64,000 nt of DNA, taken from IMG/VR virus record IMGVR_UViG_3300011977_000415, positions 1 to 64,000 of that record. The stretch is one strand, 5' to 3'. A program made the translations under genes and the position numbers. Positions within the stretch are counted from its first letter, which is position 1. The number at the start of each line of letters is the position of its first letter. The DNA comes from a virus (lineage: Duplodnaviria; Caudoviricetes). Under the pieces are notes generated by a model, which saw only the letters and a list, made by a program, of their open reading frames with translations, was not told the origin of the DNA and searched no databases. Below are positions 4,214-50,067 of this stretch, one piece after another.

Positions 4214-4243
4214 CAATGTATAATTTACAATTTATAATTTATA

Positions 4244-20409: not shown

Positions 20410-21816
20410 CTATAGATACAGCAGGATTCTGGTATGGCGGTTCGCCTCATTGGGCGAGTAATCGTCAATGCCGCCATCGAAAATCTGAGAGATGGTGCCA
20501 TTTTCCATACCACGTTTCATCAGTTCCTCTGCAATGAATCTGGCACGGGAACGGCTGAGGTTATCATTGATGGCTTCACTGCCTGTGGCACTGTCGGCAG
20601 CGCCGATGACCTTAACTTTCAAGCCATATTTCTTGGCGATGCGTGCTACTTCGTCGAGATTGACGAGCTGTGACCTGTTGAGCAACCTGTCAGTGCCAAG
20701 TTCAAAGAAGAAATAGATGGGCGCACCTATGCAAGCCTTTCCTGAGTGGATGAGCGATAGGTAATCGTCTTCCGGCTCACCTTCAGCATTGCCATATTCT
20801 TCTGTACAAGAGGCGGACTCCATGACCTTTGTCTTTTGACCATTACCATACTTGTCTCTCATTCTTGCACGCAGCGAGTTGAGACCGCTGTAGTCGTTTC
20901 GAGGATAGCCATTTGTGACGGAAGAAGCGGCATCGTCAGAAAAGAGGTGGCCGTACTTGTCCAGAAGTCCCTCGATGGCAAGAATCTTGCGCAGCTGCTC
21001 CAGAGTCTGACAATCTCGATCGTGCTGGGCGTGATAGCGGCTGTTGCTGTCAGAAAGGGATGAGGCGTATGCCGAAAGCCATTCGTTCTGTGCGATGTAC
21101 GGGCGAGCGTCTATCACTCGCTTCCAGCCAGTCTTGCCGATGCGGACAGAGAGGCCGAGGGATGCGGACAGCAGATGGTCGCCAAGGCGGTGTGCCTTGC
21201 CATAGCCGTCAAAATCCTGCATGGTGGTCATGTTGCCTATCTCTGCCGTAACAGCAATGCGTGGGGAGAGATGATACTGCCCCTGTATGCCGTAGGAAAT
21301 GGCAAAGGGCTTGTGGGCATTCACCTTGTTGTGCAGCATACCCACGCCCACGTATGGAATGACACTCCATCTGGCAAGAGTGTGTACATCGTCCTTGTAG
21401 AGGTTGCCGAGGACATTCCACATGAAATCAGCACGCAGGTACTGGTAGTCCTGCGAGGAGTTGTTGCAGTCGTTGAACTGCATACCGCCATAGTTCAGAC
21501 GACCGCCGACGGAAGGTGTGAACCATTTGCCGATCGACACGGAGAATGCCGGTTTCATGCGACCGAATAGGTCGTTGCATCCGAGCGGTTTGCCGAGGAA
21601 GACCGTAGTTCCTCCTGCCGCTTGGACAAACCAGTTGTCCGTCCATGGCGAAGCTACCAATGCCCCTTTCATGTAGGAAGGTTTAAGCGGACGAAGCATA
21701 CCGTCTGCCGAAAGTCTGCATACAACGGTGGTGGTGTCCGCCGTGCGGTGATAGTCTTTGGCTTGCGCACCCAATGAAAGGGCGAAGCCAAGGGATAGAA
21801 TAAGTATTTTTCTCAT
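20410..21816 (-). CDS. OmpA family outer membrane protein
   Basis: Signal peptide; DNWFV...GKWFTP beta-barrel; C-terminal GAADSATGS...LSRSRA...NR. Confidence 0.85.
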   Translation of the reverse strand: MRKILILSLGFALSLGAQAKDYHRTADTTTVVCRLSADGMLRPLKPSYMKGALVASPWTDNWFVQAAGGTTVFLGKPLGCNDLFGRMKPAFSVSIGKWFTPSVGGRLNYGGMQFNDCNNSSQDYQYLRADFMWNVLGNLYKDDVHTLARWSVIPYVGVGMLHNKVNAHKPFAISYGIQGQYHLSPRIAVTAEIGNMTTMQDFDGYGKAHRLGDHLLSASLGLSVRIGKTGWKRVIDARPYIAQNEWLSAYASSLSDSNSRYHAQHDRDCQTLEQLRKILAIEGLLDKYGHLFSDDAASSVTNGYPRNDYSGLNSLRARMRDKYGNGQKTKVMESASCTEEYGNAEGEPEDDYLSLIHSGKACIGAPIYFFFELGTDRLLNRSQLVNLDEVARIAKKYGLKVKVIGAADSATGSEAINDNLSRSRARFIAEELMKRGMENGTISQIFDGGIDDYSPNEANRHTRILLYL

Positions 21817-21870
21817 GTTGTTCAATTTAATCTGGTGAATACTATAACAGGTGATACGTGACAGTGCCGC

Positions 21871-23322
21871 TTATCGTTTCTTCCTTTTGCCGGAAGAGGG
21901 GCGCATCATGCGTGCAGCTTTCATCATGCAACGGCGTGCCCAAGCGCGTTCATCCTCGTCATCGTCACGTCCCCATTTGAGGTCGGACGAACTGCCGCCA
22001 CCGCCATGACCTTCGGCAAAGGTGGTGGCATCATCGACGTAGCCGAGGAATAGAAGCGTGGCACAGTACATCACCTCCGTTCCATTCTCCGCAAAGGCCT
22101 GAAGCAGGGAACCGTCAAACACGTCCTTGCCCTCATTGGAAAGCCGTGCCACACGTTCGGAGAACTCGCTGACCATGTTTTCGAGAAGGGCATTTCTGAG
22201 AACGGTGTCCGCACCTTGTCGGATAGTATCGGAATATCTGTGTGCCTCCTGCCGCAACTCCTCCGTGCGCTCCTTCATGGCGGTCATCTCCTCACGCAGG
22301 GCATCGAGCTTGCGGTCAGCCTCTGAGAGCTTCTCCTGCTTGTCGTCCAGTTTCGACTGGATAGCGGACAGTTCCTGCTCCAGCTCTTGGACTTGCTGAC
22401 GGAGAGCATCAGGATTGTCGTGACCTGCAAGAATCTGCCGATGCAATTCAGCAAGTGCCGCCTCCTTCTCAGCCTTCTCCTGCAAGAGGTTGTTGACCAT
22501 TGAGGTGAGTCCTTTTACTCTCCGCTCTGCCAGACGGATGTCCGATTGGAGCGAGGCGAGTGTCCGCTGATGGGTGGCGACGGACTGCTCAATGGTGGTG
22601 CACTGTTCTGACAGCTGGCGGCGGTATTCTTCGGTGGTGCGGTGGCGTGCTCCCGTCTCTGAGACGGAAGTTCCGCGCTCCATGCCCCAACGCTTGTTGA
22701 CATCGGCAAATTCGCTGTGCAGGGCTTTCATCCTGGCAGAAAACTCGTACTTGTCCTTTCCGGCGAATATCTGTTTGTATGCAAACTTGCCGTCCTTGAT
22801 TGGCAAGAGGGTGCAGTGAACGTGCGGATTGGTTTCGTCCAAGTGTAAGATGAAAGCGACGATGTTCTCCTCACCGTATTTGTCCGCAACAAAGCGGTAA
22901 ACATCCTTTGCCCATTCCTCAATGTCCTTGCATCGGGTTAGATGCGAATTGTCCGCTCCGTGAGTGAGATTCACCTTCTGGTCACCGAATGCCAATTCTG
23001 TCATACGTTCTCGTGAGCCTCCGAAGATGAAATTGACCACTGTGCGGAAGCGTGGCTCTGCCAGTCCCTCGTTGGGGTCTTTGATTCCACGGCTCCGCAG
23101 GATGTCTGCCATGCGCTCCGGGATGCTTCGGCTCTTGTCTATAGGACAAACCTTGCCGCCCCGAACCTCGAAGTTGAGCCGCTCACGGCTGCGGTCGTAG
23201 TTGCCTGTTGATTCAGCGGATCCCCAACCCTTTTCCGTCCAACGGCGTTGGTGCTCGTTGCTCTGTGCTGTGGTGATTCCCTTAGATGGTCGGAAATCCA
23301 TAACCTGTTTTGGTGTTGCCAT
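21871..23322 (-). CDS. mobV: MobV/Pre family relaxase
   Basis: NEHQR motif I, NYD..R..LN motif II, HLDETNPHVH motif III, coiled-coil C-terminus. Confidence 0.9.
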   Translation of the reverse strand: MATPKQVMDFRPSKGITTAQSNEHQRRWTEKGWGSAESTGNYDRSRERLNFEVRGGKVCPIDKSRSIPERMADILRSRGIKDPNEGLAEPRFRTVVNFIFGGSRERMTELAFGDQKVNLTHGADNSHLTRCKDIEEWAKDVYRFVADKYGEENIVAFILHLDETNPHVHCTLLPIKDGKFAYKQIFAGKDKYEFSARMKALHSEFADVNKRWGMERGTSVSETGARHRTTEEYRRQLSEQCTTIEQSVATHQRTLASLQSDIRLAERRVKGLTSMVNNLLQEKAEKEAALAELHRQILAGHDNPDALRQQVQELEQELSAIQSKLDDKQEKLSEADRKLDALREEMTAMKERTEELRQEAHRYSDTIRQGADTVLRNALLENMVSEFSERVARLSNEGKDVFDGSLLQAFAENGTEVMYCATLLFLGYVDDATTFAEGHGGGGSSSDLKWGRDDDEDERAWARRCMMKAARMMRPSSGKRKKR

Positions 23323-23392
23323 AACCTATTTCCTTTTATGTGTGTACAACTCTCCTGTCTCCAGCTTGCTGCTTGTAAGGACAGCCTCCCGA

Positions 23393-23459
23393 TGGTCGGA
23401 GACCAAGAGGGGTATTAGGCTACCCAAATTCCCTCATTTCCGACCAACGGGCAAGCCCG
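23393..23459. other. inverted repeats upstream of mobV, candidate oriT
   Basis: TGGTCGGA...TCCGACCA with inner GAGGG/CCCTC, plus a cgggc aa gcccg hairpin; MOB_V oriTs typically lie just upstream of the relaxase gene. Confidence 0.4.
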
Positions 23460-23530
23460 ATTATTTTACAGCAATGGCAGACGTGTAAACACTGTGCCAG
23501 TAGAAAAGAAGAAGCGTTGTACGGTGATTA

Positions 23531-24415
23531 TTAGAGGTTAATACAGCCTTTTGATGGACAGGAGCCCTCTTGGTTGGCTACAATGGCAAGGAACGGTCGG
23601 CAGAGTGACTGAAACTGTGACTTGATGGCTGCGCTTTCCTGATGCAAGGCTGGTGAGCTGCCATCCAATGCCAATTCTGATATTGCCTTTGCCGCCTCGA
23701 TGAATGAGAGCCAGTCTCCTCCCAGGTCTTTGTAAAAGAAGGGAAGAAGGGAGGTAACGAGGGCGTTATCTGTTTCCTGCGAAAGCACCTGATGGAAGGT
23801 GGCTTCGCAGACAGCTGTGAGTGCAGTCATACAAAAGGCGTGTCCTACAGATTCGGGAATGTTTCTTCCGCATGGCACCTTGCCAATTGAATTGCCATTG
23901 TCGGCTTTCTGCAAGATAATGGCTACTTCCTCTGTTGCATCTTCGTAGAGTTGTTCACATTCCGAGGCGCAAGCCGATGCGGACATCTTGCCGCTTCGCC
24001 ATTCGTCCAATGCGGTACACATCTTCTGGCGGAACACATCCAAGGCTGCGTCAATCGGAGAAACGGCAGGTGTCTCAGCCAACATCGGGATGGTGATGAT
24101 TTGGCTCTTCGTGAGACGGGTGACGGAAATCTGGTTCATCTTCTCCAACTGCTCGATGAAGGTGCGGACAGTGGCGCGGTGCCAATGCCAGCATCCTGCC
24201 AGTTCGGTAATGGTGATTACAAACTGCCCGTTGGACAGGCTGAACTCCTGCTTGCACAGATCCTTGGGGATGTACTGTACAGAAGCCTTGTCTACAAGGT
24301 CAAGGTAGGCTTCGAGCTTCGACAGCCTTATCCCGGACCTCTCTTTCAAGAACTCCAACAGGGACATCCGTTCAGACATCTTGCCGGAACTCGTTCTATG
24401 TTTCTGTTTCTTCAT
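23531..24415 (-). CDS. hypothetical winged-helix protein
   Basis: GQFVITITELAGCWHWHRATVRTFIEQLEK wHTH-like motif. Confidence 0.65.
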   Translation of the reverse strand: MKKQKHRTSSGKMSERMSLLEFLKERSGIRLSKLEAYLDLVDKASVQYIPKDLCKQEFSLSNGQFVITITELAGCWHWHRATVRTFIEQLEKMNQISVTRLTKSQIITIPMLAETPAVSPIDAALDVFRQKMCTALDEWRSGKMSASACASECEQLYEDATEEVAIILQKADNGNSIGKVPCGRNIPESVGHAFCMTALTAVCEATFHQVLSQETDNALVTSLLPFFYKDLGGDWLSFIEAAKAISELALDGSSPALHQESAAIKSQFQSLCRPFLAIVANQEGSCPSKGCINL

Positions 24416-24494
24416 TTCAATAATCTGTTTGGTGAATACTGTTGTTTGTCGCCAGCTCCATTATACAAAAGGAACGGCATGATACAGGTGATAC

Positions 24495-24989
24495 TTAATA
24501 GTAGTATATGATGAGCATTTCTGTGTCTTCGAGGAGCATCTTGCGGTCAGCCTTGTTCTTCCACAGCGATATGACTATGCGCGAGGGATAGAACAGTGAT
24601 GCCAGAAGGACAAAGGAGATGGTGACAGCAAGCGTGAACAGATGAGGAGTGAAGACAAACACCACTGCCGCCAACGCGGCGATGCAGAAGGGTGTCCGCT
24701 CCTCGTGCAGACGCTGTAGCCACCTCTCCACATCCATAAAGACAAAGAATATGGCAAACGCTATGGTGGAAGCCACTACGCCTATGTCGTTATAGTGTAC
24801 ACAGAGGTAGAGGAAGTGGAACACGTACAGCAGGATGAGCAGCATCAACCGGTAGAGCTTCCTTGCTGTCACAAGCGCGGTCATGCGCAGATAGAACCGT
24901 GTCATAAACTGTCTGCGGCTTCTGTGCAGAATCATCGTCACAAAGAAGAACGCTGACATCAGGATGAGAAACAGTATCTTACTTGTCAT
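24495..24989 (-). CDS. hypothetical membrane protein
   Basis: Several TM helices. Confidence 0.7.
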   Translation of the reverse strand: MTSKILFLILMSAFFFVTMILHRSRRQFMTRFYLRMTALVTARKLYRLMLLILLYVFHFLYLCVHYNDIGVVASTIAFAIFFVFMDVERWLQRLHEERTPFCIAALAAVVFVFTPHLFTLAVTISFVLLASLFYPSRIVISLWKNKADRKMLLEDTEMLIIYYY

Positions 24990-25392
24990 AATATGTATAG
25001 CATGTGAATAATGGAAGTGGACTCAGGTCGGGCTGGACGACACCGTGTGTGGCAGTGGATATGATACGCTCCACATCCTCCAGTGTCAGTTCTCCCTTGA
25101 TTATTCTCTGACGGAAAGCTCCGTCGGTTGTCCGAAGGCTCTTGATAGCCTGTTCCAAGTCGTACTCGGCTATCTGCCACACTTGCCCTCTCGTGTAGGG
25201 GAAATGATGGTGGATGGCCTTGACCACAAGCACACGGCTGAGGATGTCGGTCATTCTGCCGTTCCTGACTATCGTGTGGTTGCGGACAGTGGCGATGCTC
25301 TCAATCTCCAGCCATGTGCGGTGACGGTCGAGAAGATGGATAATCTTCATGTAAAGCGTTTCCTTCATCAGATGGTCGGGAGCTTGTGGCAT
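24979..25392 (-). CDS. hypothetical protein (start uncertain)
   Basis: ORF in minus-strand operon. Confidence 0.55.
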   Translation of the reverse strand: MPQAPDHLMKETLYMKIIHLLDRHRTWLEIESIATVRNHTIVRNGRMTDILSRVLVVKAIHHHFPYTRGQVWQIAEYDLEQAIKSLRTTDGAFRQRIIKGELTLEDVERIISTATHGVVQPDLSPLPLFTCYTYYDK

Positions 25393-25470
25393 GACTTTGG
25401 CCTTTGTTGTGGACAACAGAATGGAGCGTTGTTGCGGTAGAACAGGACTGTCATCTGGCAAATGTAACTT

Positions 25471-25917
25471 TCAAATGAAGTCGAGCAGGACTTCCTCCTT
25501 GGGCTTCATGTATTTGAAGAACCCGTTCTTGCAATGCAGACTGAGGTCGAGGCATACATCTGCCGACATGTGCTCCAGCGAGTCATAGATGGTCACTTTT
25601 ATCTGGCTGACCATGCCACGCTCATCTGTGGAGCCGTTGACCTTGAACATCCGTCCGAAAGAAGGGTTGGAATAGGCACAGCAGCTGTGTCCGAACTCCG
25701 TATGACGGCTTGGAATGTGGTGATAGAGGATTATCATTTCCATCTCGTCTTCGAGCATATCCATCACCTCCTCTATCGTGAAAGGGGTGTTCAACTGGAA
25801 AGTAAGAAGCACGTAATCGTCATACTTGACAGGCTTCTCCATCTTGCGCTTGTCCAGCAGTTCTGGCAACTGCAAAGGCACGACGGCAAGGAAATCATCG
25901 CAAAACTGTTCTAACAT
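25471..25917 (-). CDS. hypothetical protein
   Basis: ORF in minus-strand operon. Confidence 0.65.
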   Translation of the reverse strand: MLEQFCDDFLAVVPLQLPELLDKRKMEKPVKYDDYVLLTFQLNTPFTIEEVMDMLEDEMEMIILYHHIPSRHTEFGHSCCAYSNPSFGRMFKVNGSTDERGMVSQIKVTIYDSLEHMSADVCLDLSLHCKNGFFKYMKPKEEVLLDFI

Positions 25918-25941
25918 AATCGTATTCTCTGTTTGGGGTGT

Positions 25942-27063
25942 TTATAATCTTGTGACATAAATCTTCATCATGAGCATGGGCATATCCGACAGGCGTTGCT
26001 TGTCGAGGTGCAGTTTCTTGGCCAGACCGTCCATCTCCTTGGGGAGCGCATCGGCTATTTTGTAGAGGTCTGCCTTGTCCTTGTCGGAGAGCACGCTCAC
26101 GGAAAGGTCATCCATCGTCATGAACGGCTGCATCATCATCAGGAGGTAGGCGTGCATGGTGTGCTCGTCCTTTACCCTGCCACTATTCAGATCCTCGATA
26201 GCCGCTTGTGCGTTGCGCAGCAGACGGTGGTTGGTGCGCATGGAGAGGTATATCATTGCATCCTTGTGGGACAAATCCTTGCGGTCGGCGGCACGGAGTA
26301 TCTCCCGACAGCAGTGTTCGGTGTTTCGTCTGATGTCACCGATGTCATCGTCAGCAAAATCCGGCAGGTATTGCAGGAAGGATTTGAAATACAAATGCTC
26401 TTCCTTGATGAAAGCGAGCAGGTCTTCCTTGCCGTGAATGCCTTGCTTGGCGGATTTTTGCAGGAACAGCAGGTAACGCTTCAGTACCGCCTGTTTACCA
26501 CCTTTATTATATATAGGCAGGCTATCCAAGGAAGCGAAGAATGGCTGTGCTTCCTTCACGGCTTGCTGTAGTTCCTCATCACCAACATGGGAAGAGGTCT
26601 GTTCTCTGAGATAGAGCAGGTCGTGAAAGGTGCGTTGCTTAGACATCGCCATACGGCACAGCTCGATGTGGATGGAGTCGTTCAACTCATGATATACCGT
26701 GAACGGGTATGAGTGGGCTTTCCTGACAGTGTCACGTGAGATGCACGATGTCACGGAATCGTCCAACACGCGCCATTCGTTGACAATCTTAACTAATGTC
26801 TGAATTGAGACCTTGCCGTTCTGTCGAAGAGTGGTCAGAAAGCCATGATACTCTCTGATGGCTTCATCGCTCGAATGGAACGACTTCGTGCCGTTTCCGT
26901 CTGAACATGCTGTCAGCATGACTACGGCAAACGCAGTGGCAATACAAATGGCAAGTCTGATACAGCCATGCGAGTTTGATTTTGCATTATGCAATATTTG
27001 CTTCATGCAATGGAGGTTGGTTTGTCCTCCGAAAAGTTGGGTTTCATATTTCATTGTTGTCAT
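25942..27063 (-). CDS. helical lipoprotein (start may be ~27006)
   Basis: Hydrophobic stretch and lipobox VVMLTAC. Confidence 0.7.
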   Translation of the reverse strand: MTTMKYETQLFGGQTNLHCMKQILHNAKSNSHGCIRLAICIATAFAVVMLTACSDGNGTKSFHSSDEAIREYHGFLTTLRQNGKVSIQTLVKIVNEWRVLDDSVTSCISRDTVRKAHSYPFTVYHELNDSIHIELCRMAMSKQRTFHDLLYLREQTSSHVGDEELQQAVKEAQPFFASLDSLPIYNKGGKQAVLKRYLLFLQKSAKQGIHGKEDLLAFIKEEHLYFKSFLQYLPDFADDDIGDIRRNTEHCCREILRAADRKDLSHKDAMIYLSMRTNHRLLRNAQAAIEDLNSGRVKDEHTMHAYLLMMMQPFMTMDDLSVSVLSDKDKADLYKIADALPKEMDGLAKKLHLDKQRLSDMPMLMMKIYVTRL

Positions 27064-33182: not shown

Positions 33183-33378
33183 CTTTTCCTGCCTGCCCAA
33201 GGGATATTTTTTGCTTTCCAAGAGTGATGGCGATCAAAAAGCCAAATCGGGAGCGAAAAATACGCTCTGCACGCAGAGGAAGATTTTTCGGTCAAATGCA
33301 ATGGACGATTTGGTGTTTGAACAATCGCCAGCATTACCTTTGCAAAACAATATCCGCAGCGGCAAGGCAGGCGAAAAG
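33183..33378 (+). promoter_or_regulatory. long imperfect hairpin B, candidate ssDNA promoter
   Basis: cttttc/gaaaag, ctgcct/aggcag, ggatatt/aatatcc, ttttgc/gcaaaa, tggcgat/atcgcca, ccaaatcg/cgatttgg, cgaaaaat/atttttcg, ctctgc/gcagag; TACCTTTG at 33335. Confidence 0.7.
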
Positions 33379-33559
33379 AAATCTGTTATGTAAAAGAGGA
33401 AACGGGCGGGATGGCGTGGGGCGAAGCTGTATATGGGGAAGGACGATAGTTGATATGAGGGAAAAAGAGAAAATCTTGTAATAGGGAACGACATTGCCTT
33501 TTATCAGCATGGAGACAGTCCTACAAGCAGAGAAAACTATTGCCCTAAAAATGAGTTGG

Positions 33560-34860: not shown

Positions 34861-35286
34861 TCAGAAGGGAAGGTCTTCGCTCTTGTCCTGCGGTGCATCG
34901 GCTGGCGGTACGGGAGCCTCGCCCTCTGCCTTGGCTGCCTTGCGTGCCTTTGTTGCAGGTGTGTCGGTTGCATCCTTCTTCCCTGCATTGACAAAGGCGA
35001 TGGAGTCAGCTATGATGCTATGCTGTATGTGGTTCTCTCCGTTGCGGTCTGTCCAAATGGAAGAAGTCAGTGTGCCTTCCACAAGCACCATACGACCCTT
35101 GGTGAGGTATTCAGCCAAACGGATATGGTTCTCCTTGCTGCTCTTCACCCTTACCCAAGTGGTGATTTGCTTGCCCTTACTGTAGTCGTCCACTGCGATG
35201 TCAACAGCCATGAATGTTCCGTGTGTACCTGTGATGACGCGGCAATCCTTTGCTCCGATGCGTCCGATAGTGTGAGTGTAAATCAT
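34861..35286 (-). CDS. ssb: single-stranded DNA-binding protein
   Basis: IGRIG, TTWVRV, YLTKGRMVLVEGTL, acidic tail EDLPF. Confidence 0.9.
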   Translation of the reverse strand: MIYTHTIGRIGAKDCRVITGTHGTFMAVDIAVDDYSKGKQITTWVRVKSSKENHIRLAEYLTKGRMVLVEGTLTSSIWTDRNGENHIQHSIIADSIAFVNAGKKDATDTPATKARKAAKAEGEAPVPPADAPQDKSEDLPF

Positions 35287-35982: not shown

Positions 35983-36537
35983 CTACTTCATCCATGCACC
36001 TATACTCGACGTGACATAGTCCAACTGACCGCCAAATATGTCGCTTGGCTCTATGTCGTATTGTCCATCCCTCACTTCCTTGTCCTCTCCAAGAAGCGAC
36101 AAGTTTCCGTCGGCATCCAAACGTGCTGCGTCTATGACGATGTCACGAGGCTCGTCAAAGAGATAACCTGCCACGATGGGCTGCTCTCCCTCGAAATGCA
36201 CCTCAAAGCCTCCGTCCACCTCCGTGCCGTACTTGCGAAGAGCCGCTTTCAGCTCGTCCTGCTCCCGGTGCTGCAATGCCTGGAGTTGTCCGTGGATAGT
36301 GAGGTCTTGCAGTTCTGCCTCTCGTTTGGTGTGGGTTGCCTCGCCGGTCTTGCAGTCGATGTCATACTTGTGGTAAACCACTGGGATATGGTCTGCCGAT
36401 GTGACAAGCCATGTGATGTTGTTCACTGAGAAGCCCTGTCTGGTGAGGAACTCCTCGATGTCTGAGCCGAGAAGGTGGTCGGCTACGTCAAGATACTCGA
36501 TGCGTGCGTCAGCATCATGCAGGATGATAATCTTCAT
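35983..36537 (-). CDS. hypothetical protein
   Basis: ORF with AT-rich leader, downstream of hairpin C. Confidence 0.7.
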   Translation of the reverse strand: MKIIILHDADARIEYLDVADHLLGSDIEEFLTRQGFSVNNITWLVTSADHIPVVYHKYDIDCKTGEATHTKREAELQDLTIHGQLQALQHREQDELKAALRKYGTEVDGGFEVHFEGEQPIVAGYLFDEPRDIVIDAARLDADGNLSLLGEDKEVRDGQYDIEPSDIFGGQLDYVTSSIGAWMK

Positions 36538-36688
36538 TGCCTTTCTATTTTTAGTGATACAAATAAGTTTGTCGCCCATGTCGCTGGACTTGTTTAACTA
36601 CGTTGAAGAAACTTACGCTCAGCATAGTGAATAAATTCCCTCTGCGTTCGCTTAACCGTTTCTTTCTCTTCCCTCCTTTCGAGACCTT

Positions 36689-36876
36689 TCAGCCTGTGGA
36701 GGGATATTTTCTGCTCCCACAAGCCGCAAGAAAAGACATAAAGACAAATTATGTGTGAAGAATACTCTTTTCCGAGGAAAAGGAAGATTGTTCACAGTCA
36801 CAAGACCTCAAGCAGAATTTGACGATTGTCTCAGACGCGGCTAACTTTGCAGGAAATATGCCTACCACTGCGCTGA
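36689..36876 (+). promoter_or_regulatory. long imperfect hairpin C, candidate ssDNA promoter
   Basis: tcagc/gctga, atattttctgc/gcaggaaatat, agccgc/gcggct, agaca/tgtct, caaatt/aatttg, tgtgaa/ttcaca, cttttcc/ggaaaag; TTTG(36818)-N20-TAACTTTG(36842) full consensus on the right arm. Confidence 0.7.
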
Positions 36877-36957
36877 TTGGAAGAAGATTATTGATATTGG
36901 CTGCAAGAGGAATGATGTGTTATATATAAAGAGGTAAGAAGAAAGATTGAAACAGTA

Positions 36958-37940
36958 AGGGTGGGCAGTGAAGTGTTTGCAGGTCTGCTGTACCGACATA
37001 AAGCGAGTGTGTTGGCTGACCGGGATGCAAGTCATCAAAGCTTCAGCCTTGATAGCTTGTAGCACGGACAGACAATTCTCTCGCGTCGGTACTTCGGCAT
37101 ACTGTCAGCTTTGGCTAATAGCAACGTGTTGCCATCAGCCAAGGATGTCTGTATGACGACAGACCATGTAACGCTTCGCAAAGGCGTGGGGCAAAGCAGT
37201 ATAATTTAGAAGTAGATAGTAACGTATATCAGGCAAGAAGAGACAGTTGCGCAACGGACAAATCGGGCACTCCTGTCAGCATGACAAATGTGCCTTGTCC
37301 TTGCCGCAGGACACTGAGGCAGATTGGACGTAGCAGACATGTCTGCCACATTCAATATGCCTGAGTGGACAAGAACTGCCTCTTGTATAGCAGAAGAGAA
37401 ATTGTAAAACAGTTGATTAGTGGTAAAGGTGGTATGGGTGGGCAGAATGGCATTACACGGACATTGCCGAAGCCCGATAATGGGACAGCCAGACAGCAAT
37501 AAAGGCAGTTATCAGAAGTGTCAGTTTCTGATAGTGACATTGTTGGCTGCCTGTCACATGGGATTCGTGCGGTGTCCGTACAGTAATGCCGTTCTGAAGG
37601 TGTGGGGCGAAGCGATACAACGCACTTGGACGAAACCACCGCTTATAACAGAAAATATTTTGCAGTCAAAGAGAAGAAGAATAGTAAAGCAGGTGTGGGT
37701 GGGTAGTGAAGCTGTCGCAAGATTGACGGTCTGAATATCAAGGCGAGTGGATAGCCAGTAAAGGACACAATTATCAGAAGCCTCGGCTTCGGCATCTTGT
37801 GGCATAGATGGCAGTCCTCTCGCGTTCAGACCTTGGCATACTGTCTTTCTTGGCTAATAGCGACTTTGTCGCCATCAGCCGGGAATATCTGTATGCCAAC
37901 CATCTTGGTGACGTTTCGCAAATGGTGAGGGACGAAGTGG
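36958..37940 (+). other. array of four structured non-coding modules (two are diverged ~220-bp direct repeats)
   Basis: Modules 36968-37179, 37234-37385, 37443-37596 and 37706-37919; compensatory changes between modules 1 and 4. Confidence 0.65.
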
Positions 37941-38089
37941 TTAGAATAAAGGAAGACGGCGTTGCCGTTATGGTTAATAAATGCACATGGTTGTTATTAG
38001 AGAAGATTATCACACGCTATAACAGCAGATTGATGTCCCTGAGCAAAACAAAAGCGACCCGAAGGTCGCCTTGTTATGGAGAGGAAAGG

Positions 38090-38476
38090 CTATTTCTTGC
38101 CTTTCTTGGTTGCTGGCTTGGCCGGCTCTTCCGCAGGAGTCTCCTCCTTGTCGGGACACTCGTAGAACTTGGTTGCAACCATGATGATTCTGGAGTGCTT
38201 CACGCCATCCTTGTCTGTCCACTCCTCTGGCTTGAAGAAACCCTCGACGGTGAGCAACGTGCCCTTGGTGAGCTTGTCGAATGATTCGGTGTGCTCGTTC
38301 TTGCGCCATGCCTCCATATTCATGAAAGCCGATACGCGGTTGGTTTCCTCGCCGTTCTTCTCCTGACGGCCTACTGCCAATGAGAAGCGTGCTACGCTGG
38401 CGTTTGCGAACTGACGGATTTCTGCATCCTTACCTACGAAACCTGAAACTGTGAAGTTGTTCTCGATCTTTTTCAT
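38090..38476 (-). CDS. ssb: single-stranded DNA-binding protein lacking an acidic tail
   Basis: SGFVGKDAEIR, ARFSLAV, LTKGTLLTVEG, WTDKDG; ends in basic KKGKK. Confidence 0.8.
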   Translation of the reverse strand: MKKIENNFTVSGFVGKDAEIRQFANASVARFSLAVGRQEKNGEETNRVSAFMNMEAWRKNEHTESFDKLTKGTLLTVEGFFKPEEWTDKDGVKHSRIIMVATKFYECPDKEETPAEEPAKPATKKGKK

Positions 38477-38478
38477 TT

Positions 38479-38728
38479 TGAATTGAATTTAAAAGTGAAA
38501 CTTAATTTTTACATGCATTCAAAAGCAGGGATGTGGCACCATGTGGGAAGCACCATGAAAATCGTTCGCAATACTCTTTTTGTCGTTGGCGGTAAGGGAG
38601 AAAAAGGAAGATTACGCACTATTTTATTGGTCACAGCGATAGCGGCCACACAAGAAGGAGGAAGTCCTTCGCAGCATCACGCTACCTTTGCATGGTAAAA
38701 ATAAGTGGCTTTCAAATAGCTCAATTCA
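38479..38728 (+). promoter_or_regulatory. long imperfect hairpin D, candidate ssDNA promoter
   Basis: tgaattga/tcaattca, atttttac-atgca/tgcat-g-gtaaaaat, tgtgg/ccaca, tctttt/aaaagga; TACCTTTG at 38683. Confidence 0.65.
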
Positions 38729-39305
38729 GAAAAAGACGGGGCCAAACAATGGAACAAAGGTTGTAAGCAAGGAGGCAATCCGTATGCAACAGACAGGGGC
38801 ACTGCTATGGCTGTATGCCTGGAGAAACGAAGCGGGAAATCCGACCTTACAGCTGTATCATCAGAAGAGTGAGGAGCATGAACACTGATGCACGATGAAC
38901 GACAAGCCTAAGGGTCAGCTTAGCAATAGAGGCATCAAGCCAAAAGAGGACAGACATCAGAGGATTGGCGATAGCACTGTCATCATGCTAAGACCAAGTT
39001 CTGTGTCCGACAAGGAAGAGTCGCAAAAGACAGACGAGTAAAACCAAAAGGCGAAATGACCATTCCTATAACAAGGTACAGAGACGCTTAAAACGGCGAA
39101 GGGACTTTGGCGACGTATCGCTATACAGGTGTCGAAGCATCGCTTCTATAACAGGACTGGAGCAAGTGAGCAAACCGCACAACTTGCTCCCAAGGTATTT
39201 CAGTTACAACAGCCATAACCTCATTGGAGGATTGTCCTAAAAGAGTTTTTGCAGTCAAAGGAAGAAAGAGTCTGCAAGCCACATAGCCAACAGACTCTCT
39301 CCTGA

Positions 39306-40115: not shown

Positions 40116-40334
40116 ATGTAGAACCAACTACCATCGGGATTGATTAAAGAATTATGTTGCCCCAAAAGGTGTTATGGCTCATCAATGCAAGGTTTTGCCG
40201 TCAAATACTACCTCTGCCACAATCAGAGCGTGGAGATTTCACGGACAAACCACAGGCACCGACCTTGCAGGATGAACGCCATGACAGGTACCTTTGCAAC
40301 ACAATTCTTATCAAAGCCCGATGGGGTGGTACAT
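40116..40334 (+). promoter_or_regulatory. long imperfect hairpin E, candidate ssDNA promoter
   Basis: ccatcggg/cccgatgg, ttgat/atcaa, aagaatt/aattctt, tgttgc/gcaaca, aaaggt/accttt, tgttatggc/gccatgaca, tgcaaggt/accttgca; CTTG-N21-TACCTTTG(40289). Confidence 0.7.
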
Positions 40335-40397: not shown

Positions 40398-40616
40398 TTT
40401 TGCAGTCAAAGGAGAAAAGAGTCCACAAAGTGCAGTATCTACAGGACAAAAACACTTTAGTTTACCTTGGTTAGCTCTTATATATATGCTAACCTAAAGT
40501 AAACTGTATATATGTCCGTCTAAAACCCGAAAACCGTACGGGTCAGCTTACGTCAGAAACAGAAGTATAGAACCATAGAAGTGGTTCAAGAAGTCTTTCT
40601 TCCTTTGACTGCAAAA
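40398..40616. repeat. inverted pair of TTTTGCAGTCAAAG boxes enclosing an AT-rich palindrome
   Basis: Direct copies at 37658, 39247 and 40398, inverted copy at 40603; inner agtttac..ggttagc/gctaacc..gtaaact. Confidence 0.7.
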
Positions 40617-40865
40617 TATTATCTTTGCACGAATCATAATTGCCCTGTAGGATTTAATATAATTTAACACTCTTTGTTGAATGCAAGGAAGAACAGCTTC
40701 AATATGCTGAATATCAGTAGTATAACATTGTGTTAACCCTTAATCTGTAGAAAAGGATGTTATCATACAAAGTAATGTCCATTTGTACTTTTTCTATATG
40801 GTTTTATACTTACATTTGCATATCATTTGTATCTTGATAACAGTAACTAACTGATTATCAATATA

Positions 40866-45333: not shown

Positions 45334-48300
45334 ATGATAGCATTCATTGATACGGAGGTGAATCCGCAGACGAAGAAGGTGGCGGATTACGGGGCAGTGA
45401 GGGAGGATGGTGCGGTGTTGCACTCTCACTCCAAGGCTGACTTCGATGCCTTTGTGTCAAGATGCGATACAATATGTGGACACAATATCATCAATCATGA
45501 CCTGAAATATACCGCGTTAAGGGGAAATCCGACGATTGTGGATACGCTATTCCTGTCGCCGTTGCTGTTCCCTAAGCGACCTTATCACCACTTGGTAAAG
45601 GACGATAAGTTGCAGGTGGATGAACTGAACAATCCCGTGAATGATGCGATAAAGGCTCGTAACTTGCTGAATGACGAAGTGGCGGCTTGGAATCAGTTAT
45701 CACCCTATAGACAGAAAATCTACTATTACCTGTTGAATGAAACTAAAGAGTTCGGAGGTTTCTTTAAGCATATCGGATATTCGCCAAATGTAAGTTGGAT
45801 ATCATCAATATTTGCATCTAAACCGGATTGGATACAATTAATTCTGAAGGAATACGATGGGAAGATATGCAACCATGCAGACTTCTACACCTTGGTCAAG
45901 CAGTATCCCATAGAGTTGGCCTATTGTTTGGCTGTGATTGGCGCTGACGACATCTTTTCGATAACTCCAGCATGGGTGATACGCAACTATCCACAGGTGG
46001 TGAATGTGATGAACATACTGTGCAATACGTCTTGCGGAGATTGTGAGTATTGTCATCAACGGTTGAATGCGCACTACGGACTGAAAGAGTTCTTTGGTTA
46101 TGGTGAGTTTCGTATTTTTGATGGCGTTCCTATGCAGCAACAAGCTGTGGAGGCGGCCATCCGTGGCGAGTCGTTACTGACGATTTTCCCAACGGGAGGC
46201 GGCAAGTCGCTGACTTTCCAGTTACCCGCTTTGATGGCTGGAAGGAATACACATGGGTTGACCGTAGTTATTTCACCATTACAGTCGCTGATGAAAGACC
46301 AAGTGGACAACCTCGCGGAACGTGGTATTAGCGACGCGGTGACCATCAACGGATTGTTAGACCCTATCGAACGGGCAACTGCTATCGAACAGGTGGCTGA
46401 CGGAACAGCCAATCTGCTCTATATTGCTCCAGAAATGTTGCGTAGCAAGACCATTGAGCGTCTGTTGATGGGACGCCATGTTGTTCGCTTTGTGATAGAT
46501 GAGGCCCACTGCTTCTCTGCATGGGGGCACGATTTCCGTGTGGACTACTTGTATATCGGTGATTTCATTCGCCAGTTGCAAGAAAAAAAACAATTGAAAC
46601 GGCCTATTGCGGTATCGTGTTTTACAGCAACAGCCAAACAAAAGGTTATTAGCGACATTTGTGACTACTTCAGGGCAAAGTTGGGCTTGGAACTGAAAGT
46701 GTTTGCCGCTAATGCTGAGCGTAAAAACCTGCGCTATTCTGTGCTTCACGCTGATACGGCTGATGAGAAATATAACCTATTGCGCTCATTGATTCTTGAT
46801 CATAACTGCCCCTCGATAGTGTATGTTTCTCGTACTCGACGAACCCGTGAATTGGCACAGCATTTGGTCAACGACGGCATACGTGCCTTGCCTTTCAACG
46901 GAAAGATGGAGGCTGCGGAGAAGATTAAGAACCAGAATGCTTTTATGAGTGGCGATGCACAGGTGATTATAGCCACGTCTGCCTTTGGAATGGGGGTTGA
47001 CAAGAAAGACGTAGGGTTGGTGGTTCACTATAACATCAGCGACTCTTTGGAAAATTATGTGCAGGAAGCTGGACGTGCTGGACGAGACCCGCAGATGCAG
47101 GCTGAATGCTTTGTATTGTATGCAGACAGCGACCTCGACAAGCACTTTATTCTCCTTAACCAAACCAAACTTAGTATCAGCGAGATTCAGCAGGTTTGGA
47201 AAGCCATCAAGGATCTTACAGCAAAGCGAGATAAGGTAAGTTGTTCGCCATTGGACATTGCACGCCAGGCTGGATGGGGAGACGAAATAGATGACATAGA
47301 AACCCGAGTGAAAGCTGCCATTGCGGCCCTTGAAGATGCTGGATTCATACAACGTGGCAGTAATTCACCGCATGTGTTTGCTACGGGCATTGCTGTGAAG
47401 AATATGGATGAAGCCCGCCGCAAGCTAACCATCTCACCTCTCTTTGATGAGCAGTCACGCGAGGAAGCAGCTCGTATTATCAAGTCGTTAATAAGTGCTC
47501 GTGCAACAGCTGAAGGAAGAGGTGCTGAGGCTGAAAGTCGGGTTGACTATCTGGCAGACATCCTTGGTATGAACAAGGCGACTGTCATTCGCAATATCAA
47601 TCTGATGCGGCAGAATGGTATTCTAGCTGACAGCCGCGATATGCAGGCATGGATTACCAAGAGTACGACGGTGAGGAACCTTGATACCATACTACGATTG
47701 GAGCAGTTTATGTTACAACAATTTTCAGAAGAATCACGTCGGTTTAACTACAAGGAATTAAATGAGGAGGCTCAGAAGGCCGGAATGACTTACTCCAATG
47801 TCAAACGACTGAGGATGTTACTGCACTTCATGACGCTGAAAGGGTACATTTACAAACAGGAGCACAGCATTACTGGTTATGTCAACATAAGACTTCAGTC
47901 ATCAATGGAGGTAAAAAAAGCTCGATTTGAACGACGGATGGATATTTGCAGGTTTGTCGTGGATCGTTTGAGTACACAAAAAGACAGCAACAAGGATATG
48001 ATACTTATCAACTTTTCTGTTATAGAACTACTCCAGCAGTTCATTGCCAGTCGCCGGGAAACGATGTTTTCGGACAATGATAAGCCCACAATTGCAGACA
48101 TCGAAGAAGCACTGCTATATCTTACCAAAACGGAACTGATGAAGATTGAAGGCGGATTTATCGTTCTCTATAATACCATGCAAATTGGACGTCTCGTAGC
48201 AACACGTACCAGATATGGCAAAGAGCAGTATCGTTTGTTGGATGAATTCTATAAACAACGCATTCGCCAGATTCATATCGTAGGCGAATATGCCAATCTG

Positions 48301-50067
48301 ATGGTTCGTGACTACAATGCAGCGTTGCGTTTCGTCAACGACTACTTTACAATGGACTTCCGCAAGTTCATCAAACAGTATTTCAAAGAAGAACGCAGGG
48401 CGCAGATTGACCAGAACATCACTCCAGCCAAATACAACAAACTCTTTGGCGAACTCTCTAACCGCCAATGCGAGATTATCGACGACAAGGAGTCGAAATA
48501 TATCGTTGTCGCAGCAGGTCCGGGAAGCGGAAAGACGCGGGTACTGGTGCACAAGTTGGCCTCGCTGTTGCTGCTGGAGGATGTGAAGCACGAGCAACTG
48601 TTGATGCTCACTTTCTCAAGAGCTGCGGCAACTGAATTCAAGAAACGACTCATAGAATTGGTGGGTAATGCCGCACATTATGTGGACATCAAGACCTTCC
48701 ATTCCTATAGTTTCGACCTTGTTGGCAAGCAGGGCAGTCTGGATGAGGCGAAAGATGTGGTACGCCTTGCGGCAGAGATGATTGAAAATGGTGAGGTAGA
48801 AGCATCGAAGATTGCCAAGAGCGTGCTTGTCATTGACGAGGCGCAGGATATGGGACAGGATGACTTCCGATTGGTGCAGGCTCTGATGCGCCAGAACGAG
48901 GAGATGCGAGTCGTTGCTGTGGGTGATGACGACCAGAACATCTATGGTTTCCGCGGTTCCGACTCACGATACATGTTGTCGCTCGTCGAGCAAGAAGGTA
49001 CTCAGACTACGATTGGGCGAACACAGAGTGAGCAGGCTCGACCGAAGGTCAAGTTGTATGAGATGACAGACAATTATCGTTCTGCAAAAGCGGTAGTTGA
49101 TTGTGCCAACCGCTATGTACTACGGATACCTGGCCGTTTGAAGCATACTTCCATACAATCAGCGACAGGGGAAGATGGCAAGGTGATGACTTTGAAGTCA
49201 CTTTTAGATGCAGAAATAAAGGTAGAGGGAAGTACCGCGATACTAACCCGTACCAACGAGGAAACAATGCAGGTTGCCTACGAGTTGGGGCAGCGAGGAT
49301 TGCATGCCACAATTGCGCAGTCGTTGGGAGGTTTCCGTTTTGGAAATCTTGCAGAAGTGCGTTACTTCCTTAAACAGTTTGGCGGGAAAGGTGATGTGAC
49401 TCTTTCAAAGGAGAGGTGGCAAGAAGCCAAACAGCGTACACTGGAAACCTATGCGGCAAGTTCTTGTCTCAGTATTATGCGGCATTTCTTTTCAGACTTC
49501 GAGATAACGCACAAATTCTATTATCGTAGTGATTTGCGTGAATACATCTTTGAGTCGAATATTGAAGATTTCATTGCAGCTGATGATAAGTCTGTATTTG
49601 TGAGCACTATCCACAAAGCAAAGGGTCGTGAGTTTGATACTGTGTATCTCTTGTCGCCAATACCTGATGGGAGGGATATCAATGATATGCGGACTTATTA
49701 CGTGGGGCTCACTCGTGCAAAACGAAACCTGTATCTTGTTACGAATCCTCCCAAGGAGTATTCATCAATATCCATTGCATTGAATATGCATGATGTCTGG
49801 CTTGACTTCTTCAAGGAGCGCAAGAATGTTGTGCTTCGTCTCAGAAGCGGTGACAGTTTGCAATACAAGGATGGCTATTTATTAAATGAAGATGGCATCA
49901 ATGTCGCGGCGCTCTCTGTCTCTGGCAAGGATAAATTGAAAGCCTGGACGGATAAAGGCTATGAGGTGACAAGTGCGAATGTGATTTATACGTTGGCTTG
50001 GAAGCCCCAAAACTATAATACGGAATATGCAGTTTGTTTGGCAAATGTGGTCTTATCTAAAAAATAA
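45334..50067 (+). CDS. RecQ-family helicase fused to an N-terminal DEDD-like domain and a C-terminal UvrD-like SF1 helicase
   Basis: FIDTE/GHNI..HD; PTGGGKS, DEAHC.S.WGHDFR, QEAGRAGRD (RecQ); AGPGSGKT, DEAQD, VGDDDQNIY.FRG, NYRS, TIHKAKGREF, YVGLTRAK (UvrD). Confidence 0.9.
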   Translation: MIAFIDTEVNPQTKKVADYGAVREDGAVLHSHSKADFDAFVSRCDTICGHNIINHDLKYTALRGNPTIVDTLFLSPLLFPKRPYHHLVKDDKLQVDELNNPVNDAIKARNLLNDEVAAWNQLSPYRQKIYYYLLNETKEFGGFFKHIGYSPNVSWISSIFASKPDWIQLILKEYDGKICNHADFYTLVKQYPIELAYCLAVIGADDIFSITPAWVIRNYPQVVNVMNILCNTSCGDCEYCHQRLNAHYGLKEFFGYGEFRIFDGVPMQQQAVEAAIRGESLLTIFPTGGGKSLTFQLPALMAGRNTHGLTVVISPLQSLMKDQVDNLAERGISDAVTINGLLDPIERATAIEQVADGTANLLYIAPEMLRSKTIERLLMGRHVVRFVIDEAHCFSAWGHDFRVDYLYIGDFIRQLQEKKQLKRPIAVSCFTATAKQKVISDICDYFRAKLGLELKVFAANAERKNLRYSVLHADTADEKYNLLRSLILDHNCPSIVYVSRTRRTRELAQHLVNDGIRALPFNGKMEAAEKIKNQNAFMSGDAQVIIATSAFGMGVDKKDVGLVVHYNISDSLENYVQEAGRAGRDPQMQAECFVLYADSDLDKHFILLNQTKLSISEIQQVWKAIKDLTAKRDKVSCSPLDIARQAGWGDEIDDIETRVKAAIAALEDAGFIQRGSNSPHVFATGIAVKNMDEARRKLTISPLFDEQSREEAARIIKSLISARATAEGRGAEAESRVDYLADILGMNKATVIRNINLMRQNGILADSRDMQAWITKSTTVRNLDTILRLEQFMLQQFSEESRRFNYKELNEEAQKAGMTYSNVKRLRMLLHFMTLKGYIYKQEHSITGYVNIRLQSSMEVKKARFERRMDICRFVVDRLSTQKDSNKDMILINFSVIELLQQFIASRRETMFSDNDKPTIADIEEALLYLTKTELMKIEGGFIVLYNTMQIGRLVATRTRYGKEQYRLLDEFYKQRIRQIHIVGEYANLMVRDYNAALRFVNDYFTMDFRKFIKQYFKEERRAQIDQNITPAKYNKLFGELSNRQCEIIDDKESKYIVVAAGPGSGKTRVLVHKLASLLLLEDVKHEQLLMLTFSRAAATEFKKRLIELVGNAAHYVDIKTFHSYSFDLVGKQGSLDEAKDVVRLAAEMIENGEVEASKIAKSVLVIDEAQDMGQDDFRLVQALMRQNEEMRVVAVGDDDQNIYGFRGSDSRYMLSLVEQEGTQTTIGRTQSEQARPKVKLYEMTDNYRSAKAVVDCANRYVLRIPGRLKHTSIQSATGEDGKVMTLKSLLDAEIKVEGSTAILTRTNEETMQVAYELGQRGLHATIAQSLGGFRFGNLAEVRYFLKQFGGKGDVTLSKERWQEAKQRTLETYAASSCLSIMRHFFSDFEITHKFYYRSDLREYIFESNIEDFIAADDKSVFVSTIHKAKGREFDTVYLLSPIPDGRDINDMRTYYVGLTRAKRNLYLVTNPPKEYSSISIALNMHDVWLDFFKERKNVVLRLRSGDSLQYKDGYLLNEDGINVAALSVSGKDKLKAWTDKGYEVTSANVIYTLAWKPQNYNTEYAVCLANVVLSKK

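Follow-up and report, generated by a model that had tools for sequence, protein, structure and literature searches.

The window analyzed here, a stretch of 64,000 nucleotides taken as a whole, covers the initial 64 kb of an IMG/VR "provirus" record that is 105,364 bp long; the remainder of the record (64-105 kb) is a genuine prophage, with genes for terminase, an SPP1-type portal, capsid and tail. The part that bears the array described below looks like a conjugative or mobilizable Bacteroidales element: alongside the relaxase and Toprim_2 genes listed in Table 1, it encodes two ArdC-like proteins, parA/parG, two ssb genes, a PRTase-SLOG pair and a 1577-aa helicase of the RecQ+UvrD type. No T4SS genes were found in the 64-kb window, and the genes at 27.3-31.1 kb lie on the plus strand. 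To the left of the array, beyond a long hairpin, begins a minus-strand operon in which the first gene is followed by a 76-aa gene, an HTH_17 gene, the second ssb, parA and parG; to its right an ssb paralogue converges on the array, and the intrinsic terminator of that gene, which is weak as a terminator on the plus strand, is kept in most of the SSB loci.

The stretch 36800-38000 is present at 100% identity in records labeled Bacteroides finegoldii (NZ_OY725908, strain TSDC17.2-1.1) and Phocaeicola massiliensis (OY726012) and at 92-98% identity in B. stercorirosoris DSM 26884 (locus L006; related loci are given by such numbers throughout). BLAST against plasmids and phages returned only two Bacteroidales records, both 100% identical, and one trivial phage match, and a search of viral contigs for homologues via the flanking protein found none. 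The B. finegoldii "plasmid" record is apparently a chromosomal contig with PULs. Within the 105-kb record, there are no further copies besides the array itself and one "empty" site.

Table 1. The array, the promoter hairpins and genes discussed in the text, by position in the 64,000-nt window.
Feature	Position	Strand	Remarks
Primase-like gene and adjacent 531-aa ORF	2618-5386		
Toprim_2 protein	4244-5386		
Mob_Pre relaxase	21871-23322	-	inside minus-strand operon 20410-27063
Paralogous hairpin	33185-33375		-7 box at 33335; 71% identical to hairpin 36688-36880
"Empty" clamp GGGCGGGATGGCGTGGGGCGAAGC	33404-33427	+	62 nt past the -7 box of the paralogous hairpin
First gene of the operon that the hairpin is predicted to serve	35983-36579	-	198 aa, without a Pfam family
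Long imperfect hairpin, Frpo-like candidate ssDNA promoter	36688-36880	+	about 190 nt; boxes on 3' arm, -33 TTTG at 36818-36821 and -7 TAACTTTG at 36842-36849
Spacer between hairpin and first clamp	36881-36958	+	unstructured (z +1.45), fast-evolving
Module 1	36959-37197	+	three-way junction 36968-37179
Module 1 clamps	36959-36965; 37183-37197	+	5' GGGTGGG; 3' GGCGTGGGGCAAAGC
Module 2	37234-37385	+	branched, spacer-type, without G-tract clamps; equally stable on both strands
Module 3	37436-37613	+	154-nt rod 37443-37596, 62 pairs
Module 3 clamps	37436-37442; 37599-37613	+	5' GGGTGGG; 3' GGTGTGGGGCGAAGC
TTTTGCAGTCAAAG box	37658-37671	+	in spacer; again at 39247 and 40398; inverted at 40603-40620
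Module 4	37697-37938	+	three-way junction 37706-37919
Module 4 clamps	37697-37703; 37924-37938	+	5' GGGTGGG; 3' GGTGAGGGACGAAGT
ssb intrinsic terminator	38051-38072	-	hairpin then TTTTGTTTTG; right boundary of the array
ssb paralogue	38090-38476	-	128 aa, SSB domain, lysine-rich C-terminus; convergent with the array
Third hairpin	38496-38712		-7 box at 38683
Fourth hairpin	40131-40330		-7 box at 40289

Four folded modules and their G-tract clamps

A preliminary description of this DNA had proposed four consecutive folded modules without a credible ORF, and both points are borne out. As RNA, the plus strand of 36955-37945 folds to -385 kcal/mol against -311 +/- 6.8 kcal/mol for dinucleotide shuffles (z -10.8), and the modules taken singly reach z -7.6 (module 1), -7.2 (module 2), -9.6 (module 3) and -6.7 (module 4), against values near zero (z -0.9 to +1.5) for the spacers 36870-36957 and 37614-37696 and for two control stretches at 38700-39127. 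The minus strand gives z -9.2 with RNA parameters, DNA parameters give z -9.9 on the plus and -7.7 on the minus strand, and in a genome-wide scan with 200-nt folds the array is among a handful of plus-strand outliers. Modules 1 and 4 are direct repeats (72-75% identical) that fold as three-way junctions, and module 3 is indeed a rod of very nearly the 155 nt that had been proposed. Module 2, for which the same topology as in modules 1 and 4 had been claimed, is branched as described, but it stands outside the clamped family, having no G-tracts and a stability indifferent to strand. The array is C-poor and G-rich (G-skew +0.21). The early argument that G-T pairs point to the plus strand also holds: modules 1, 3 and 4 each have 6-7 of them on the plus strand against 1-5 on the minus strand, and substitutions pass through G.T. 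Such pairs make up about 9% of module pairs as compared with about 5% in the neighboring hairpins.

Comparison with L006 shows the modules to be the better preserved part, with identities of 98.4, 96.3, 94.7 and 91.7% for modules 1 to 4 and far less in the spacers; about 27 of 69 positions differ in the spacer ahead of module 1 as against 4 of 248 in module 1 itself, and the changes in modules 1 and 4 mostly fall on unpaired bases or exchange T.G with C.G or G.T for A.T. The sole ORF of note (37420-37734, 104 aa), a PGAP annotation that appears as "hypothetical" in NZ_OY725908, is interrupted in the L006 copy by an in-frame stop; no other ORF of more than 100 aa lies wholly inside the array, and the short ones all overlap folds. 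Contigs from three RNA libraries, two of them apparently the same data, span 32-41 kb including the array; they are strandless, may stem from DNA carry-over and carry no information on ends or expression level. A search of the 105-kb record for antisense targets yielded nothing except the 14-18-nt repeated box and, in the relaxase gene, a single match of 16 nt.

Modules 1, 3 and 4 each stand between G-runs, of GGGYGGG type on the 5' side and GG(N)GNGGG type on the 3' side, which makes four runs per module. The 5' clamp, GGGTGGG, sits 0-2 nt ahead of the closing helix, and the 3' clamp, GG(C/T)G(T/A)GGG(G/A)C(A/G)AAG, 2-4 nt past it. Among 80 loci retrieved through the ssb homologue there are 29 distinct clamped modules, with GGG[T/C]GGG as the 5' clamp and GGGNGGG, GGNGNGGG, GGGNNGGG or GGTTGGG as the 3' clamp; the bodies so enclosed range from a 31-nt hairpin (the "mini" form of the L012 group, at 5020-5090 in L012) through the 154-nt rod to three-way junctions of 170-230 nt. 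Members found by the covariance model described below, for example those of L035 and L060, are clamped as well, and single G-runs lapse in L026 and L016. The loops within the clamps are 1-2 nt long and variable (T, C, A, AT), the G-runs are constant and a bulged run (GGNG) is frequent; such constancy of the runs beside variable loops is the pattern that a quadruplex, rather than a sequence-specific site, would leave. The four G-runs could form a G-quadruplex whose long central loop is the module body. Next to the hairpin, these runs appear to be the constant part, because the clamp persists without any body at 33404-33427 or with only a 31-nt hairpin.

The Neisseria pilE G4 (G3TG3TTG3TG3) resembles the clamps in having two G3-N-G3 halves, and the mini form, G3TG3-hairpin-G3TG3, is built like a quadruplex-duplex hybrid. 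The clamps differ from both in that a fold of 30-230 nt serves as the central loop and the third run frequently carries a bulge (GGNG), and the quadruplex here is putative. Searched as a pattern in 401 Bacteroidales genomes, the clamps gave, beyond G001, only five chance-like matches, and the exact 3' clamp pattern had 36 matches in viral contigs, about the estimated chance number. We also considered target-site duplications as the origin of the clamps and rejected them: the empty site retains both halves and there are no dispersed copies.

A covarying family with one architecture

Modules 1 and 4 had been described as diverged repeats with compensatory base changes, and this is amply confirmed when the two copies of L006 are added: 90.2% of cells in the alignment pair, as compared with 33-42% when the partners are slid, and 11 pairs are changed on both sides as compared with 0-4. 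The helix GTACCGAC/GTCGGTAC, which corresponds to GGTCTGAA/TTCAGACC, adds four further double changes, counted by hand in a region where the alignment is one base out of register.

A covariance model (R1) built from window-type modules (1 and 4) only matched, over its full length, sequence-unrelated groups at many loci in Bacteroidales, with scores of 48-96 bits (E 1e-23 to 1e-11) and weaker matches in L029, L032 and L037; rod and mini forms scored 22-45 bits, module 3 among them at 41 bits. All full-length matches elsewhere lie on the strand equivalent to the plus strand of the window, and 5 of 60 sampled Bacteroides species genomes contain matches. In a 20-member alignment, which was fitted to R1 and is hence biased toward the model, 90.2% of cells are paired (37-41% slid), 74 of 81 pairs are double-changed (24-35 slid) and the covariation score is 0.596 (about 0.09 slid).

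One architecture is common to the large modules in at least eight groups of unrelated sequence. A closing helix P1 of 14-20 bp, often starting GTGAA/TTCGC, leads into a tight junction (J12, 2-5 nt; J23, 0-1 nt, with 3 in L043; J31, 0-2 nt); P2 opens with a 6-9-bp segment, P2a, followed by a bulge of 5-6 nt on the 5' side only, and measures 59-116 nt in total, and P3 measures 65-72 nt (34 in L038). The second P1 pair is U.G in 14 of 19 sequences. No conserved loop or junction sequence was seen across the module bodies. The Rfam search proposed in the preliminary description returned no family: at the gathering score there was no match in the 64-kb window or in ten related loci, and at E<=10 the stretch 36400-38400 matched just snoJ33 and MicX, both noise. 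STAXI, Bacteroides-1, Bacteroides-2 and Bacteroidales-1 are among the families thus left without a match.

Candidate hairpin promoters beside the clamps

The consensus promoter that had been placed at 36818-36849 is a full match to the Bacteroides -33/-7 promoter (TTTG-N20-TAACTTTG, one of six in 64 kb), but it is not free-standing, being part of the 3' arm of the roughly 190-nt hairpin that adjoins the array. The 5' arm of this hairpin leads into the minus-strand gene whose start is at 36579. All four hairpins of the window share this design, with minus-strand genes on the side of the 5' arm, TA(A/C)CTTTG on the 3' arm and no ORF in the plus direction; in three of the four, including the one beside the array, the -7 box lies opposite an internal loop. 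The genes reached from the 5' arms include ssb, ssb2 and the PRTase-SLOG pair, and homologous hairpins are present in other loci. Reading the hairpin as a divergent, duplicated promoter was rejected, the complement of the -7 box being missing on the opposite arm in all but one of the four hairpins. Upstream of the RecQ/UvrD-type helicase in the B. finegoldii record, no hairpin promoter was found.

This arrangement makes the hairpin a candidate for the geometry of Frpo and of the pESBL ssDNA promoters, in which folding of the single plus strand would rebuild a duplex promoter aimed at the minus-strand genes, and it suggests that Bacteroidales elements may use Frpo-type hairpin promoters on their own -33/-7 consensus. 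Because such a geometry serves minus-strand genes, the promoter is no longer a specific argument for an RNA product. Judged in silico, the boxes of an ssDNA promoter are found in hairpin 36688-36880 and not in the array modules; TTTG-N18-22-TAnnTTTG is absent from 36850-38100 on either strand.

The hairpins and the clamps are coupled by distance. Among the loci with upstream sequence inspected, the distance from the -7 box to the first clamp is 43-110 nt in the window (twice), in L006, L012, L015, L016, L020 and L024 and again in L026, L038, L042, L049, L051 and L061, and in L136 the first clamp lies about 95 nt past the hairpin. In L136, a Bacteroides genome, a similar hairpin follows a minus-strand pair of 188 and 167 aa that begins like the PRTase-SLOG operon, and a full junction module occupies the site equivalent to the empty one at 33404; as the same site is empty in one place and filled in the other, clamp bodies evidently come and go. 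Locus L139 has neither a clamp nor an ssb within its 2.7 kb. Arrays continue to the terminator of the next gene, in L015 in the order hairpin, mini, B, A, B, A, ssb terminator (A being a clamped and B an unclamped module, A a junction) and in L049 in the order hairpin, clamped, clamped, unclamped. No clamp follows the window hairpins at 38.5 kb and 40.1 kb, and the 600 nt beyond the 38.5-kb hairpin are purine-rich and unstructured.

Possible readings: folds of the transferred strand or structured RNAs

The ssDNA promoters known from conjugative plasmids offer the closest comparison. The Frpo/ssi promoters of F, ColIb-P9 and pESBL and the ssp2 element are likewise long folds of the transferred strand near ssb and anti-restriction genes; those of pESBL have been mapped by 5' RACE (PMC12672017). 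At the ssp2 stem-loop of F, complementary synthesis stalls at the end of the stem, and this roadblock is resolved by UvrD, the delay prolonging zygotic induction (bioRxiv 10.64898/2026.01.09.698686). The hairpin adjoining the array shares the Frpo geometry, whereas the array modules differ from Frpo and ssp2 in being devoid of promoter boxes, branched, clamped by G-runs and arranged in tandem; the array also comes from Bacteroidales with their TTTG/TAnnTTTG type of promoter, and sequence similarity was neither expected nor, beyond the two identical Bacteroidales records, seen in the plasmid search. The STAXI motif (Weinberg et al., 2010; PMC2864571), which comprises 2-3 tandem folds and for which the authors left RNA versus ssDNA open and assigned no function, is similar in its tandem conserved folds beside ssb, anti-restriction and integrase genes; it differs in being a small pseudoknot with UUCG loops, while the units of the array are 150-260 nt long, mostly three-way junctions, and have G-run clamps. 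Inspected by eye, the module folds show no enrichment of GNRA, UNCG or GNA tetraloops, so that the tetraloop argument used for STAXI cannot serve either way. Primosome or primase sites of the G4 and phiX types are also folded ssDNA signals on the transferred or lagging strand that are read by shape, but those known are hairpins of about 40-150 nt and not clamped three-way junctions. The array is a member of neither the Frpo/ssi-ssp2 group nor STAXI, and searches of the literature on Bacteroides sRNAs, CTn-linked RNAs, leading-region quadruplexes and Bacteroidales plasmids turned up no description of it; it is a real, strongly supported and hitherto undescribed feature.

The explanation that we find most attractive, while rating it at somewhat short of an even chance, is that the modules fold on the transferred strand and act in cis, shielding or insulating the hairpin promoter. 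After conjugative entry the plus strand would be single-stranded and each module would fold locally; in the clamped modules, each a self-contained fold with a closing helix of 17-20 bp and usually a three-way junction, the four G-runs would lock the base as a quadruplex that has the fold for its central loop. Synthesis of the complementary strand, like read-through from ssb, would arrive from the 3' side and reach the array before the hairpin; the modules would act as physical barriers or insulators, prolonging the time during which the hairpin and its operon are single-stranded and active. After conversion to duplex, the modules might also halt outward transcription from the same promoter toward ssb. 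The plus strand is probably the transferred one, because the minus-strand genes read toward the relaxase operon as leading-region genes read toward oriT, and a barrier to incoming synthesis is suggested by the position of the modules 3' of the promoter hairpin.

Several observations favor this use of the single strand: the hairpin promoters point away from ORFs and their 5' arms lead into minus-strand genes, the first clamp sits at a set distance past the hairpin, the clamp survives without a body, the bodies vary (junction, rod, hairpin) with no loop sequence conserved, the plus strand still folds as DNA (z -9.9), the context includes a relaxase operon, two copies of ArdC, two ssb genes and parA/parG, and the ssp2 roadblock of F is a precedent. 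Position, strand, the empty clamp, varied bodies, unconserved loops and variable copy number are all accounted for. Against it, a barrier needs stability only, yet the architecture is precise across unrelated sequences and the conserved U.G at the second P1 pair goes unexplained; the two together look more like a recognized three-dimensional fold. The reading is further weakened by the higher share of G.T pairs in the modules than in hairpins assumed to fold as DNA, by the two of four window hairpins (38.5 and 40.1 kb) that are clampless, by the lack of T4SS genes in the window, where oriT was not located either, and by the plus-strand genes at 27.3-31.1 kb.

Both alternatives of the preliminary description, ssDNA structures and an ncRNA array, survive, and they come out nearly equal; the rolling-circle sso variant of the former has no support, as no RCR replicon and no sso motifs were seen. 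A structured ncRNA, which we regard as a serious if tentative possibility, would be transcribed from the duplex-state promoter at 36818-36849 on the plus strand through the array to the terminator at 38054-38069, in the region of the ssb terminator, with the closing helices and G-runs as processing or stabilizing ends, giving RNAs of about 170-250 nt that would act in trans, e.g., by binding protein. Most covarying folds in intergenic DNA behind a promoter prove to be RNAs, and here a full-consensus Bacteroides promoter lies 43-110 nt upstream in the examined loci, the covariation is very strong and the architecture fixed, wobble pairs are conserved with a G.U share above that of the adjacent hairpins, the structure is specific to the plus strand and the array is C-poor and G-rich. 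The RNA-library contigs of two studies that cross the array point weakly the same way, being strandless and open to DNA carry-over, and for the comparable STAXI motif the authors leaned to RNA (Weinberg et al., 2010; PMC2864571). A plus-strand RNA very probably exists, because the same promoter, when duplex, must fire rightward into the array. On the other side, the hairpin already accounts for the promoter, the modules lack promoters and terminators of their own, no conserved loop or junction sequence offers itself to a partner, GNRA/UNCG loops are not enriched by eye, complementarity to the rest of the element is at chance save for the repeated 14-nt box, no Rfam family matches, and a bodiless clamp is kept at the equivalent position.

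Three further explanations are much less probable. Recognition by shape would suit a fixed architecture with free sequence, and so the modules might be ssi sites that load the host primosome (PriA) or the Toprim primase of the element and start complementary-strand synthesis; location and strand agree, a Toprim_2 protein is encoded in the window, and tandem or multiple ssi sites reportedly occur on plasmids. We nevertheless consider this improbable: priming beside the hairpin would make it duplex sooner, three or four tandem sites with none elsewhere on the 105-kb record are odd for priming, and we know of no ssi site with G-run clamps. In F, moreover, a primer is already provided by the Frpo-type hairpin (Masai and Arai, 1997, as related in papers that cite it). 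A promoter followed by a G-skewed stretch bearing G-runs could also be the leader of an origin, its G-rich transcript priming DNA synthesis by way of a stable RNA-DNA hybrid or hybrid quadruplex, and parA/parG imply that the element may replicate autonomously. ColE1 RNA II and mitochondrial CSBII are the models for such a leader, which is very unlikely here: the same clamps occur at two window sites as well as at many loci on chromosomes, neither an antisense control RNA nor origin features were seen, and the primase-like gene with its adjacent 531-aa ORF lies elsewhere (2618-5386). Least probable of all, with hardly any weight in our estimate, is a set of decaying miniature transposable elements, with terminal inverted repeats and G-rich target duplications, or a functionless neutral repeat; the closing helix does resemble terminal inverted repeats, the clamps are imperfect direct repeats and one site is seen both occupied and empty, but there are no copies elsewhere in the record, matches are few (the 5 of 60 Bacteroides genomes for the model, and only the chance-like pattern matches beyond G001 in the 401), and of two new loci checked L136 has the hairpin context and L139 lacks clamp and ssb in its 2.7 kb. 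The internal helices, moreover, covary strongly, the modules are better conserved than the spacers, and the empty site retains both clamp halves.

Returning to the two leading explanations, we tentatively suggest that the array represents an undescribed class of G-quadruplex-clamped three-way junctions, which may be timers or insulators of ssDNA promoters, tunable by the number of modules, or else G4-capped stable RNAs. With its covariance model and more than 20 members, the family is open to direct tests. Bacteroidales conjugative and mobilizable elements carry resistance and fitness genes through the human gut, and the establishment of such elements in new cells is almost unstudied beyond the plasmids of E. 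coli; this locus suggests a second dedicated layer in that process, in which folded modules with quadruplex-like clamps, variable in copy number, are added onto hairpin promoters. If the modules are RNAs, they would constitute a family that is new, covaries strongly and is capped by an unusual G-rich motif, quadruplexes in bacterial RNA being, to our knowledge, otherwise thought to be avoided. If they act on the single strand, they would extend the recent finding that DNA structure times early expression after transfer.

Hairpins preceding minus-strand genes

In each of the four imperfect hairpins in the window (see table), the 3' arm bears the Bacteroides TA(A/C)CTTTG box and the apex is AATAC...GGAAGATT; homologues of these hairpins are present in many of the Bacteroidales loci fetched via an ssb homologue. 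These hairpins are candidate Bacteroidales counterparts of Frpo, the single-stranded-DNA promoter hairpin of the F plasmid.

The ~600 nt 3' of the ssb hairpin (38700-39250) are non-coding, with purines abundant on the + strand (AT skew up to +0.30), and are without structure (z, fold energy relative to dinucleotide shuffles, about 0 to +1.5). This unstructured, purine-rich stretch is opposite in character to the folded array.

Features of the window and a related locus
Feature	Position	Strand	Remarks
Imperfect hairpin, ~190-217 nt	33185-33375	+	precedes minus-strand genes
Imperfect hairpin, ~190-217 nt	36688-36880	+	precedes minus-strand genes
Imperfect hairpin, ~190-217 nt	38496-38712	+	precedes minus-strand genes
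Imperfect hairpin, ~190-217 nt	40131-40330	+	precedes minus-strand genes
TTTTGCAGTCAAAG box, direct	37658-37671	+	non-coding stretch
TTTTGCAGTCAAAG box, direct	39247-39260	+	non-coding stretch
TTTTGCAGTCAAAG box, direct	40398-40411	+	non-coding stretch
TTTTGCAGTCAAAG box, 18 nt	40603-40620	inverted	non-coding stretch
Second SSB paralogue	34861-35286	-	acidic C-terminal tip ...SEDLPF
SSB paralogue adjoining array	38090-38476	-	lysine-rich C-terminus ...PATKKGKK
1577-aa helicase-domain protein	45334-50067	+	RecQ-type (DEAD/Helicase_C) and UvrD-type domains
Helicase homologue, 54% identical	L003 13201-18075	-	B. finegoldii record

Module 3 and its spacer

In NZ_OY725908, PGAP annotates a hypothetical protein (WP_224204806.1; window 37420-37734, + strand) whose reading frame overlaps module 3 of the array; a stop codon breaks this frame in B. 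stercorirosoris, and the gene call is probably spurious. The spacer 3' of module 3 (37623-37638) is perfectly complementary over 16 nt to the relaxase gene (22830-22845; E 0.025 within the record), a match that may be due to chance.

The record beyond the window

The 64-105 kb part of the full record, G000 (stretches L133 and L134), is a true prophage, encoding terminase, SPP1 portal, capsid E, tail, C5 methylase and antirepressor; the record is therefore either a prophage linked to a relaxase/ArdC/ssb/parA element or a composite. Also outside the window, positions 90351-90750 (+ strand; L132 850-1250) fold strongly (z down to -4.4 in a 200-nt scan), overlap a 192-aa ORF and had no match in Rfam.

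SSB paralogues and the helicase

The two SSB paralogues of the window have unlike C-termini, the acidic tip of the second resembling that of host SSBs. In the 1577-aa protein, the helicase domains sit C-terminal to a long N-terminal stretch; its B. finegoldii homologue is encoded on the strand opposite to that of the window copy, a few kb past the ssb module on the side where the array lies. A helicase of this RecQ/UvrD type would in principle be capable of resolving both quadruplexes and hairpins.
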